A DNA stretch of 64,000 nt from an uncultured Gemmatimonadales bacterium (GTDB lineage Bacteria; Gemmatimonadota; Gemmatimonadetes; Gemmatimonadales; GWC2-71-9): positions 480,001 through 544,000 of the forward strand of contig CAWCVB010000002.1 of assembly GCA_963798915.1 (NCBI GenBank), in the 5' to 3' direction. Position numbers and translations under genes: made by a program. The notes under the pieces are model-generated. The model was not told the DNA's origin and did no database searches. It saw only the letters and a list, made by a program, of their open reading frames with translations. Positions within the stretch are counted from its first letter, which is position 1, and the number at the start of each line of letters is the position of its first letter. Of the stretch, positions 31,887 through 33,133 are shown one piece after another.

Positions 31887-31909
31887 CGTATGCCGCCTTG
31901 TATCTCTGA

Positions 31910-32080
31910 ATCTGAGTTTCGCTGTAGCTTTTGAATAGGGTGGTAACCCGTTGCGCCTTTGGGCTCCGAGCCCGTTCGTTAGCCTGGGTGCCACCCGTCG
32001 TTGATCGCCGAGAGCCCGAACAGTTGCCGGGGGCTCTGACCCCGCATCACGCAAGGCTGGGCCACGCCGATCGTGTCTCG
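31910..32080 (+). ncRNA. Putative bridge RNA (boundaries approximate)
   Basis: Two internal loops: CGCCT/CGTTAG matching the target and ACAGTTGC/CAAG matching the circle junction, each closed by stems. Confidence 0.8.
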
Positions 32081-32093
32081 TCAGGAGCGACCC

Positions 32094-33026
32094 ATGGACT
32101 GCTGCATCGGCATTGATGTCTCGAAGGCGATGCTCGACCTCGCCTCCCTCCCCGATGGGGAGCGCTGGACCGTCACCAATGACGAGCACGGCCTGGCCGA
32201 GCTTGCCCCACGCCTCATCGCCCTCGCCCCGAGCCTCATTGTCCTGGAGGCCACCGGGGGCTTTGAGTTCCTCGCCGCCATCACCTTGGCGAAGGCCGGC
32301 CTGCCCGTGGCTGTCGTGAATCCCCGTCAGGTCCGCGATTTCGCCAAAGCCTTGGGGCGCCTCGCCAAGACCGATGCCCTCGACGCGGCCATCCTCGCGG
32401 ACTTTGCCCAGCGGATTCGCCCGGAGCCCCGCGCGCTGCCGGATGAAGCGGCGCAGCTGCTCGAAAGCCTACTGACACGCCGTCGGCAGATCGTCGAGAT
32501 GCTGACCGCGGAGAAGAACCGGCTGGGCTTTGCCCGGGGCCCGGTCAAGCGCGATATCAGCCAGCACATTCGCTGGCTCGAGAAGCGGCTGGCCGACGTC
32601 AACGGCGACCTGCAGGAGGCCGTCGCGGCGAGTCCGCTGTATCGAGCCAAGGCCGAGCTCCTGACCAGCGTACCCGGCGTCGGGCAGGTCACGACGCTCA
32701 CGCTCCTGGCCACCCTCCCTGAACTCGGTCAGCTCTCACGTCACCAGATCGCGGCGCTCGTCGGCGTGGCGCCCATGAATCGGGATAGCGGCACGATGCG
32801 CGGCAAACGGATGGTCTGGGGCGGCCGGGCACCCGTGCGGGCGGTGCTCTATATGGCGACCCTCGTTGGCATCAAGCACAACCCCGTGCTCCGAGCCTTC
32901 TACGCGCGGCTCCGGGCCGCCGGGAAGCCCTTCAAGGTCGCCGCCACAGCCTGCATGCGAAAGCTGCTCACGATCCTCAACGCGATGCTCACGCACAACC
33001 GCCGGTGGAACGCAGAACACGCTTGA
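32094..33026 (+). CDS. IS110-family DEDD recombinase/transposase
   Basis: [44 protein letters not shown]. Confidence 0.95.
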
Positions 33027-33041
33027 CTTTCGAGACAGTTG

Positions 33042-33133
33042 CTAACGCCTTAGCTTTCAGCTGCAAGCACACTACCACCAATGCGGCGAAGCCGCATCCG
33101 AAAAGTGCTTGTCAGCTGCAACGTGTGTTAGGC
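33042..33133 (-). other. attC site whose core box is cut by the IS110 element
   Basis: CTAAC...TTCAGCTGCAAGCAC ... GTGCTTGTCAGCTGCAA...GTTAGGC. Confidence 0.85.

Follow-up and report, generated by a model that had tools for sequence, protein, structure and literature searches.

The DNA analysed here is a 64,000-nucleotide stretch (the window) from an uncultured Gemmatimonadales bacterium (GCA_963798915.1, contig CAWCVB010000002.1, positions 480,001 to 544,000), in which an insertion sequence (IS) of the IS110 family interrupts an attC site of an integron-type cassette array. Very probably this is an intact IS110-group element whose putative bridge RNA carries a target loop written against the R' core of attC. 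The data directly support the anatomy of the element, the covariation of its RNA structure, the covariation of the guides with target flanks and with donor ends, the identity of the targets as attC sites and the strand that is read.

Without its core the element measures 1143 bp (31899-33041, plus strand), its limits being given by termini that are conserved in relatives. It starts with TGTATCTC (TGTATC...) and ends with GACAGTTG. On the plus strand the sequence reads CT directly to the left (31897-31898) and again directly to the right (33042-33043), two copies of the core that represent the target duplication, and AACG follows the right copy. The termini TGTATCTC...AGACAGTTG are kept in 26 close relatives, with elements of 1137-1144 bp, as well as in most of 79 related loci, and CT is also present on both sides in those relatives for which the ends were located. 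Deleting the element together with one CT gives ATGCCGC-CT-AACG, the reverse complement of which holds GTTAGGC. This had been noticed in a preliminary description made from the letters alone, and both this reading and all coordinates given there agree with the sequence. A short duplicated core and scarless restoration of the target are typical of the IS110 family, and both are found here: CT stands at either junction and the full attC hairpin is restored. The noncoding DNA of the element is divided unequally over its ends (195 nt 5' of the gene against 15 nt 3' of it), a layout that returns in the relatives. No end-to-end subterminal inverted repeat was present among the 25 longest inverted repeats of the element; by eye, the sole likeness between the ends is TGT(A)TCTC/GAGACA.

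The single gene of the element (32094-33026, plus strand) is preceded by GGAG 6 nt before the ATG and encodes a recombinase of 310 amino acids (P0001). Pfam recognises the domains PF01548 DEDD_Tnp_IS110 (5.4e-24) and PF02371 Transposase_20 (4.7e-19), and the score against NCBIfam NF033542 'IS110 family RNA-guided transposase' is 230.7 bits at a cut-off of 140. Among proteins with a solved structure, P0001 is closest to ISCro4 (1.6e-40) and IS621 (5.7e-36), and the alignment covers residues 5-299. The motifs IGIDVSK, LEATGG, KTDALDA and NRDSGT align with ISCro4, and the acidic and serine motifs are present. P0001 has the N-terminal DEDD (RuvC-like) domain and the C-terminal Tnp domain with catalytic serine that characterise the family. 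A long noncoding end upstream and a short one downstream is the layout of the IS110 group and not of IS1111 (PMC11208160; PMC11187229). The element shows the long upstream noncoding end of the IS110 group and no subterminal inverted repeats of 7-17 bp; neither the guide region downstream of tnp nor the subterminal inverted repeats of the IS1111-attC elements is found in it. Judged by its layout and closest solved relatives, the element is an intact member of the IS110 group, to which the bridge recombinases IS621 and ISCro4 belong.

Relatives were collected with a protein scan of GTDB genomes, which gave 228 confirmed relatives, and 79 loci were kept. All loci that are 72-97% identical to P0001 come from metagenome-assembled genomes (MAGs) of Gemmatimonadales; those at 56-66% identity come from Nitrospira, cyanobacteria, Dehalococcoidia and others. 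With a word-index protein search more than 7900 proteins are obtained at E <= 1e-60, bearing generic names only and in many cases lying on contigs of 1.1-1.5 kb. Several genomes contain multiple copies with identical noncoding regions (for example L014-L017 and L024), and such identity points to recent activity in the relatives. Some genomes also hold more than one copy per array (L012/L013, L014/L015, L016/L024, L021). A plasmid search with P0001 returned distant relatives only, at no more than about 59% identity (H5, 58.8%).

The left-end noncoding region (31899-32093, plus strand) is the putative bridge RNA, as delineated by RNAalifold and covariation on an alignment of 59 non-identical left ends (A1). 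RNAalifold predicts two stem-enclosed internal loops, each round a hairpin, with 27 pairs in total, 14 of which show compensatory changes. In A1 the paired fraction of the cells is 95.7%, against 84.5% after column shuffles and 31-48% with slid partners. Cells changed on both sides number 170 in A1, compared to 50 in the shuffles and 20-41 in the slid controls. None of 500 shuffles reached the covariation score of A1. The first structure, the target-binding loop (31938-31996, plus strand; helices 1-3 of the covariation count), consists of a basal stem (31938-44/31990-96), inner pairs (31948-49/31987-88) and a hairpin (31961-64/31970-73), and 7 of its 9 basal-stem pairs have changes on both sides. 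The second, the donor-binding loop (32014-32062, plus strand; helices 4-6), consists of a stem (32014-18/32058-62) and a hairpin (32030-33/32040-43). Two internal loops with 5' and 3' guides round hairpins and covarying stems are what an IS621-type bridge RNA should have, and the alignment displays them all. Folding 31899-32093 and aligning it with homologues, a check named in the preliminary description, has thus produced a conserved, covarying two-loop structure as well as the guide/target covariation described below. The same description had classified the element as IS110-type with an IS621-like bridge RNA layout, a classification that stands on the Pfam, NCBIfam and ISCro4/IS621 matches, on the 195 against 15 nt of noncoding DNA and on the covarying two-loop structure.

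A separate observation concerns the Rfam model sX15, a small RNA of Xanthomonadaceae. It aligns over its full length to the reverse complement of 31930-32074 (minus strand) with 25 bits at a gathering score of 55 (E = 0.02). The model may be an antisense record of an IS110-type left end, which we mention as a lead only.

The guide segments were taken blindly from the alignment columns of A1. They coincide with the segments that had been named before: CGCCT at 31954-58, CGTTAG at 31977-82, ACAGTTGC at 32020-27 and CAAG at 32052-55, with the hairpin GGGCT-CCG-AGCCC at 31961-73, are all in place. The left target guide GTTGCGCCT (31950-31958, plus strand) has the same sense as the left target plus core, which for this copy reads ATGCCGCCT. 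The right target guide GTTCGTTAG (31974-31982, plus strand) has CTAACGAAC as its reverse complement, and the target of this copy is CT-AACGCCT. In the second loop the left donor guide ACAGTTGCC (32020-32028, plus strand) matches the right end ACAGTTG and the C of the core, and the right donor guide CAAG (32052-32055, plus strand) is the reverse complement of CT-TG, made up of the core and the two bases with which the left end begins.

Guides and flanks were compared for 64 copies with full flanks, representing 63 unique combinations and 38 guide classes. On the left side, cognate flanks agree with the guide at 4.68 of 7 positions (3.08 for non-cognate flanks). On the right side the agreement is 4.67 of 6 positions for cognate flanks against 1.99 for non-cognate ones. 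When one copy per class is used, 362 of 494 guide/target positions match, compared to 205.3±10.5 with shuffled flanks; the maximum over the shuffles is 247, and 0 of 10000 reach 362. In the donor loop, the left guide varies in step with the element's right end through five variants (ACAGTCG, ACAGGTG, ACGGTTG, ACAATTG and ACAATCG) and the right donor guide CAAG is nearly invariant, like the left end TGTAT. First-loop guides that covary with the target flanks, and second-loop guides that covary with the element ends, are the behaviour expected of a bridge RNA.

Restoring the interrupted site shows what the element has entered. An attC consists of RYYYAAC...GTTRRRY boxes that close a hairpin, imperfect and about 57-141 nt in size, one arm of which carries extrahelical bases separated by a 6-bp stem (PMC5027507). 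The restored site GCCTAAC...GTTAGGC (31892-98 plus 33044-33133) folds as a 94-nt imperfect hairpin (-24.4 kcal/mol, DNA fold) in which 7 of 7 box bases are paired; its size, its box pairing and its single-base bulges 14 and 21 from the 3' end are those of an attC. The remainder of this site, identified from the restored-site folds and bulges, occupies 33044-33133; the plus strand is its bottom strand and the R'' complement GTTAGGC lies at 33127-33. As had been reported, the two ends of the cassette match over 12 nt: GTTAGGCGGCAT at 31370-81 is the reverse complement of the restored ATGCCGCCTAAC. This match was also considered as a clue to the orientation of the array and was rejected as such, being symmetric: it is extended R'/R'' pairing under either reading.

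The site is one of a series. attC-like sites are clustered between approximately 26970 and 33781 with ORF-sized spacers (ORF, open reading frame), and all ORFs of these spacers are on the minus strand. The ORF (31386-31886, minus strand) of the cassette at whose 5' end the element now lies belongs to no Pfam family; its ATG is 11 nt from the core box and its stop abuts the next attC (31278-31376). The octamer specified by the guides, GYCTAACG, has two further sites in the window (28932 and 31278), in each case in the same box of another attC site and on the same strand. Motif counting alone does not detect the array, because the strict pattern GCCTAAC-N40-70-GTTAGGC has no site in the window and the count of GTTRRRY is below chance. 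At its right end, beside a chloride-channel gene, the array has a triple direct repeat GCAGCCTAA[C/G/T] (33771-33842) that, by its sequence, looks like an attI with integrase-binding repeats. No integrase gene follows, the ORF beyond the repeat (33890-34603) having no Pfam family, and the combination of intI and attI beside the array that makes a complete integron was not found in the window. One cassette of the array (27189-27752, minus strand) encodes a protein with a nuclease-related NERD domain (9.3e-25); the other cassette ORFs are without a Pfam family.

For the relatives, the nature of the target was determined with an automated attC test. The test demands a box and a GTT-box partner, allowing the box no more than a single mismatch to RYYYAAC and the partner likewise no more than one; of the first 30 bases no fewer than 16 must pair with the last 32 when the DNA is folded without constraint. 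It is passed by 18 of 76 copies, all of which have CTAAC-type right guides, against 0 of the 49 copies with other guides. The number of testable CTAAC-type copies is 26; besides the 18 that pass, L013, L016 and L025 resemble attC sites by eye. At protein identities ranging from 97% to 58%, in Gemmatimonadales as well as a Deferrimicrobium MAG, the CTAAC-type guide is retained. Mapping the copies and inspecting their flanks, as the preliminary description had advised, therefore gives a consistent outcome: CTAAC-type copies are mostly in attC, and guides aimed at unrelated sequences covary with the flanks of their own copies.

A natural experiment is provided by one MAG with four copies, L004-L007. 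Their right guide is ACCCTAG, in other words CCCTAG replaces CGTTAG, and three of the four (L004, L006 and L007) are located at CT-AGGGT flanks in ordinary non-hairpin DNA. The change from CGTTAG to CCCTAG together with flanks CTAGGGT is a natural reprogramming that has led this sublineage away from attC. In L005 and L006 (2745-2804 in each) a left-end copy of 60 nt ends exactly at the left target guide and is then followed by a full element, an arrangement consistent with insertion of the element into its own guide-coding DNA. Such self-insertion would be possible because the new right guide matches the bases after the left guide (CCGCCT|AGGGG). Covariation over 38 guide classes, the natural guide swap and the CTAAC-type relatives in attC hairpins all argue for the proposal, made already from the single sequence, that the loops are programmed against the attC core.

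Nonetheless, a number of results weigh against this reading. The window contains only one copy of the element, and the left guide of this copy agrees with its own left flank at 6 of 9 positions only. The minimum-free-energy fold of the single sequence is no better than that of shuffles (z = 0.35); alone it is uncompelling, and the RNA signal rises far above chance only once relatives are added. Rfam gave no match at the gathering score in the whole window, and the E-value search of the noncoding region gave only the sub-threshold sX15 match on the opposite strand. Neither the 42 window ORFs nor the 139 ORFs from the ±3-kb flanks of 30 related loci yielded the Phage_integrase domain of an integron integrase, which is why we call the host a cassette array without visible integrase. 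Furthermore, for 5 of the 26 testable CTAAC-type copies the site is not clearly an attC. The flanks of L001 and L003 read CTAAT, which gives a G·T wobble with the guide. No partner box is seen for L008 and L011, both unconvincing as attC; L011 (3949-3990) stands at the start of a CTAACG-like heptamer run (CGACTAA, CGCCTAA, CGCTTGA...), which is not an attC. In L023 (3949-4100) the element is found at a GCCT|AAC homologous to the attI-like core of the window, beside the same chloride-channel gene. Finally, the specificity is modest: free GYCTAACG sites in the window number 2 where 1.7 are expected, which is not above chance, and the enrichment in attC partly reflects where the octamer motif lives.

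The latter could be taken further, by arguing that an ordinary IS110-type element simply reads a short attC-like motif without any adaptation to integrons, so that the link is a by-product of motif frequency. Only about 8-9 nt are specified, GYCTAACG is not enriched in the window, some relatives are in non-attC DNA (L003, L008 and L011) and the left-guide matches are weak. We regard this explanation as improbable, however, given that 18-21 of the 26 testable CTAAC-type copies are in attC hairpins whereas none of the 49 with other guides is. In addition, the CTAAC-type guide has been retained over the full range of protein identities mentioned above, in Gemmatimonadales as well as in the Deferrimicrobium MAG, and each of the three GYCTAACG-type sites in the window, of which one is occupied and two are free, is an attC box, with all three on one strand.

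Less credible still is the idea that the element belongs to the described IS1111-attC group (ISPst6, ISKpn4, ISPa21 and similar elements). The broad IS110 family and the target class are the same, and published attC targeting is assigned to IS1111 members (PMC11187229; PMC11089894). Here, however, the long noncoding region lies upstream of the gene and not downstream, and long subterminal repeats were not detected. The guide that pairs with the bottom strand precedes the one that pairs with the top strand, whereas in the IS1111 seekRNAs examined the order is reversed (PMC11187229). Moreover, P0001 is only 25% identical to the protein of an IS1111-layout element in the same array (see below), and its best solved relatives are IS110-group enzymes. 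Equally hard to maintain is that the element needs the attC hairpin structure or the integron integrase to find its target, the guide-like matches being incidental: in attC recombination the substrate is a folded single strand, and insertion invariably takes one arm and one orientation, but in relatives the guides covary with the flanks at unrelated, non-palindromic targets, a guide change alone took L004-L007 out of attC sites, and no integrase gene was found nearby in either of the ORF sets named above.

If the target loop is written against the R' core, the precise position within attC becomes of interest. On the bottom strand the AAC triplet is in R' (5'-RYYYAAC-3') and the extrahelical bases are on the opposite arm, with a 6-bp stem between (Nivina et al. 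2016, PMC5027507). Read on the strand of the recombinase gene, two single-base bulges stand some 15 and 22 nt before the 3' end in 16 of 18 host sites; in sum the host sites have 40 bulges on the 3' arm and 8 on the 5' arm. Because the bulges are on the 3' arm of the gene strand, this strand is the bottom strand, and the element has entered R', with RYCT on one side and AAC on the other. This assignment agrees with the cassette ORFs, which are all on the strand opposite to the recombinase gene. The sole exception is L032 (112-1350; 63% identical, right guide CTAACAA), with a short hairpin and bulges on the arm that also contains the AAC; this copy might target the R'' end of attC, although it is a single case with an uncertain fold.

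On the top strand the arrangement is G^TT-AG-[element]-AG-GC, at 2 nt from the integrase crossover. Since the element follows just after the crossover, it is part of the downstream cassette. The preliminary description had placed it likewise, 3' of G^TT, and this position is borne out by the geometry of the extrahelical bases and the orientation of the cassette ORFs. After insertion the R' box reads TGCTAAC (...TTGCT-AAC), which retains the AAC triplet as well as 5 of the 7 pairs with R''. By position, joint movement with the cassette is possible. A BLAST comparison of the 600-nt left flanks detected no cassette shared among copies, the sole match being the left-end repeat of 61 nt in L005/L006. 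Movement of element and cassette as a unit thus finds no support in the copies compared.

The data support only the base-pairing code; the sequence of events, and with it RNA expression, a circular form, catalysis and current activity, we infer by analogy. The 195-nt left end would most likely give a bridge RNA with two internal loops. By homology with IS621, a circle with abutted ends would be formed first. In the junction of this circle TTGACT (33023-33028, plus strand), a candidate -35 box read by eye and by analogy, would come to stand 17 nt from TATCTC (31901-06) and the two might act as a weak junction promoter. TTGAC is conserved near the right end of the relatives, and a sigma-70 scan of the linear element found no site. 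The second loop (ACAGTTGC and CAAG) would pair with the joined ends ...ACAGTTG-CT-TGTATC..., and the first loop (left guide GTTGCGCCT and right guide ...CGTTAG) with both target strands, so as to specify G-Y-C-T|A-A-C-G on the strand of the recombinase gene. The DEDD/serine recombinase would subsequently exchange strands at the CT core. What the target loop would read is the bottom-strand R' box (5'-RYYYAAC-3') and one following G. As the R' box is among the few sequence-conserved parts of attC, insertion would take place in cassette arrays, in a single orientation and with the gene antisense to the cassette ORFs. The left guide match is short (about 4-7 nt) because the sequence beyond the box varies between cassettes. 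For IS621 a tolerance of partial matches ('half-match' behaviour) is reported in a preprint (bioRxiv 10.64898/2026.08.31.748434), and excision biases are described in PMC13626964.

The closest known systems are IS621 and ISCro4 (PDB 8wt6, 9t56; Durrant et al. 2024, PMC11208160), which have the same two recombinase domains, a bridge RNA in the long left end and a CT core. The order of the loops is also the same: the target loop comes first, with the left guide 5' and the right guide 3' of the hairpin, and is followed by the donor loop. The donor ends are alike too (...ACAGT..-CT-TGTAT...), and the IS621 bridge RNA has GGACAGTAT and GCAAGG at the corresponding places (PMC11208160 supplement). 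The natural target differs: repetitive extragenic palindromic (REP) elements are named as an example for IS110 elements (PMC11208160), against the R' core of attC here. Compared to IS621 the left target match is short, since only the core box is conserved, and the sequence is too diverged for any Rfam model.

RNA-guided attC targeting as such is known for ISKpn4, ISPst6 and ISPa25 of the IS1111 group, with a seekRNA shown for ISKpn4 and ISPst6 (PMC11187229). In the IS1111 seekRNAs examined there, the top-strand match is 5' of the bottom-strand match, so that the order is reversed between the two types. The IS1111-attC group (ISPst6, ISKpn4, ISPa21 and ISPa25) shares the target class with our element, and as in that group some genomes have several copies per array; it differs by a guide RNA downstream of the gene, reversed guide segments and long subterminal repeats. 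Group IIC-attC introns are likewise an attC-specialised mobile lineage, but these are retroelements with a ribozyme and a reverse transcriptase and use an unrelated mechanism.

Both IS110-family types are present in this array. A second element with IS1111 layout, recognised from its ORF, layout and comparison with the first, occupies 29050-30619 (minus strand) within another attC (28932-30631). Its tnp (29464-30543) encodes 359 amino acids, 25% identical to P0001, and has a long 3' noncoding region that is wholly duplicated in tandem (2 x 209 nt, 100% identical, 29050-29467). This element has the R'' box GTCTAAC plus CCGAC on one side and the L'' arm on the other, whereas the studied element is in R'; IS110-type and IS1111-layout elements thus occupy one array at opposite attC ends. 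A plasmid search with the second element's protein gave a best match of 41%, and no link to clinical integrons was seen in the plasmid searches with either protein.

Bridge and seek RNAs were described in 2024, and few of their natural targets have been worked out. Within the literature searched, attC targeting was known before for the IS1111 group only. No attC targeting by the IS110 group or by bridge RNAs was found in that literature, which did not include ISfinder, and a named IS of this kind may exist; a word search of the readable files among the Durrant 2024 supplements gave no 'integron' or 'cassette'. The elements described here would constitute an abundant, unnamed IS110-group clade from soil Gemmatimonadota that reads the attC core with an IS621-style target loop. 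The clade would be of value as a natural series of guide reprogramming, with variants of attC, the escape to CTAGGGT and the insertion into its own guide DNA, and the two lineages together would be a case of convergent integron targeting by RNA-guided elements. With it one can also test how such elements act on cassette exchange, by blocking it, fixing it or hitch-hiking on it. The system further offers a natural recombinase that is compact and whose left target need only be very short, which bears on the 'half-match' behaviour of IS621.

It might even be argued that both branches of the family independently wrote guides against opposite attC ends, as found side by side in this array, that the site stays recombinogenic and that the IS110-type element rides as the first part of the downstream cassette and spreads by way of the integrase. 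As the AAC triplet is preserved along with 5 of the 7 R' box bases, the site may indeed stay recombinogenic, yet taken as a whole we consider this scenario rather unlikely. If true, a bridge-RNA element would gain a second, integrase-driven route between genomes.

Some features elsewhere in the window are worth mentioning. The dnaE gene (DNA polymerase III alpha; region 20379-23847) is divided over two ORFs (20379-22229 and 21805-23847) that overlap and use different frames; this could be due to a frameshift, a sequencing error or a programmed event. Tandem heptamers, (GACGACC)n and (CAGCGCA)n, are found in intergenic stretches at 5038-5114, 18308-18412, 20626-20688 and 33991-34046. An ORF at 52345-53148 with a weak match to an IS200-like Y1 transposase (1.3e-05) overlaps four tandem repeats of 51 nt (52647-52901). 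The region from 54 to 60 kb has a G+C content of 57%, against 67%.

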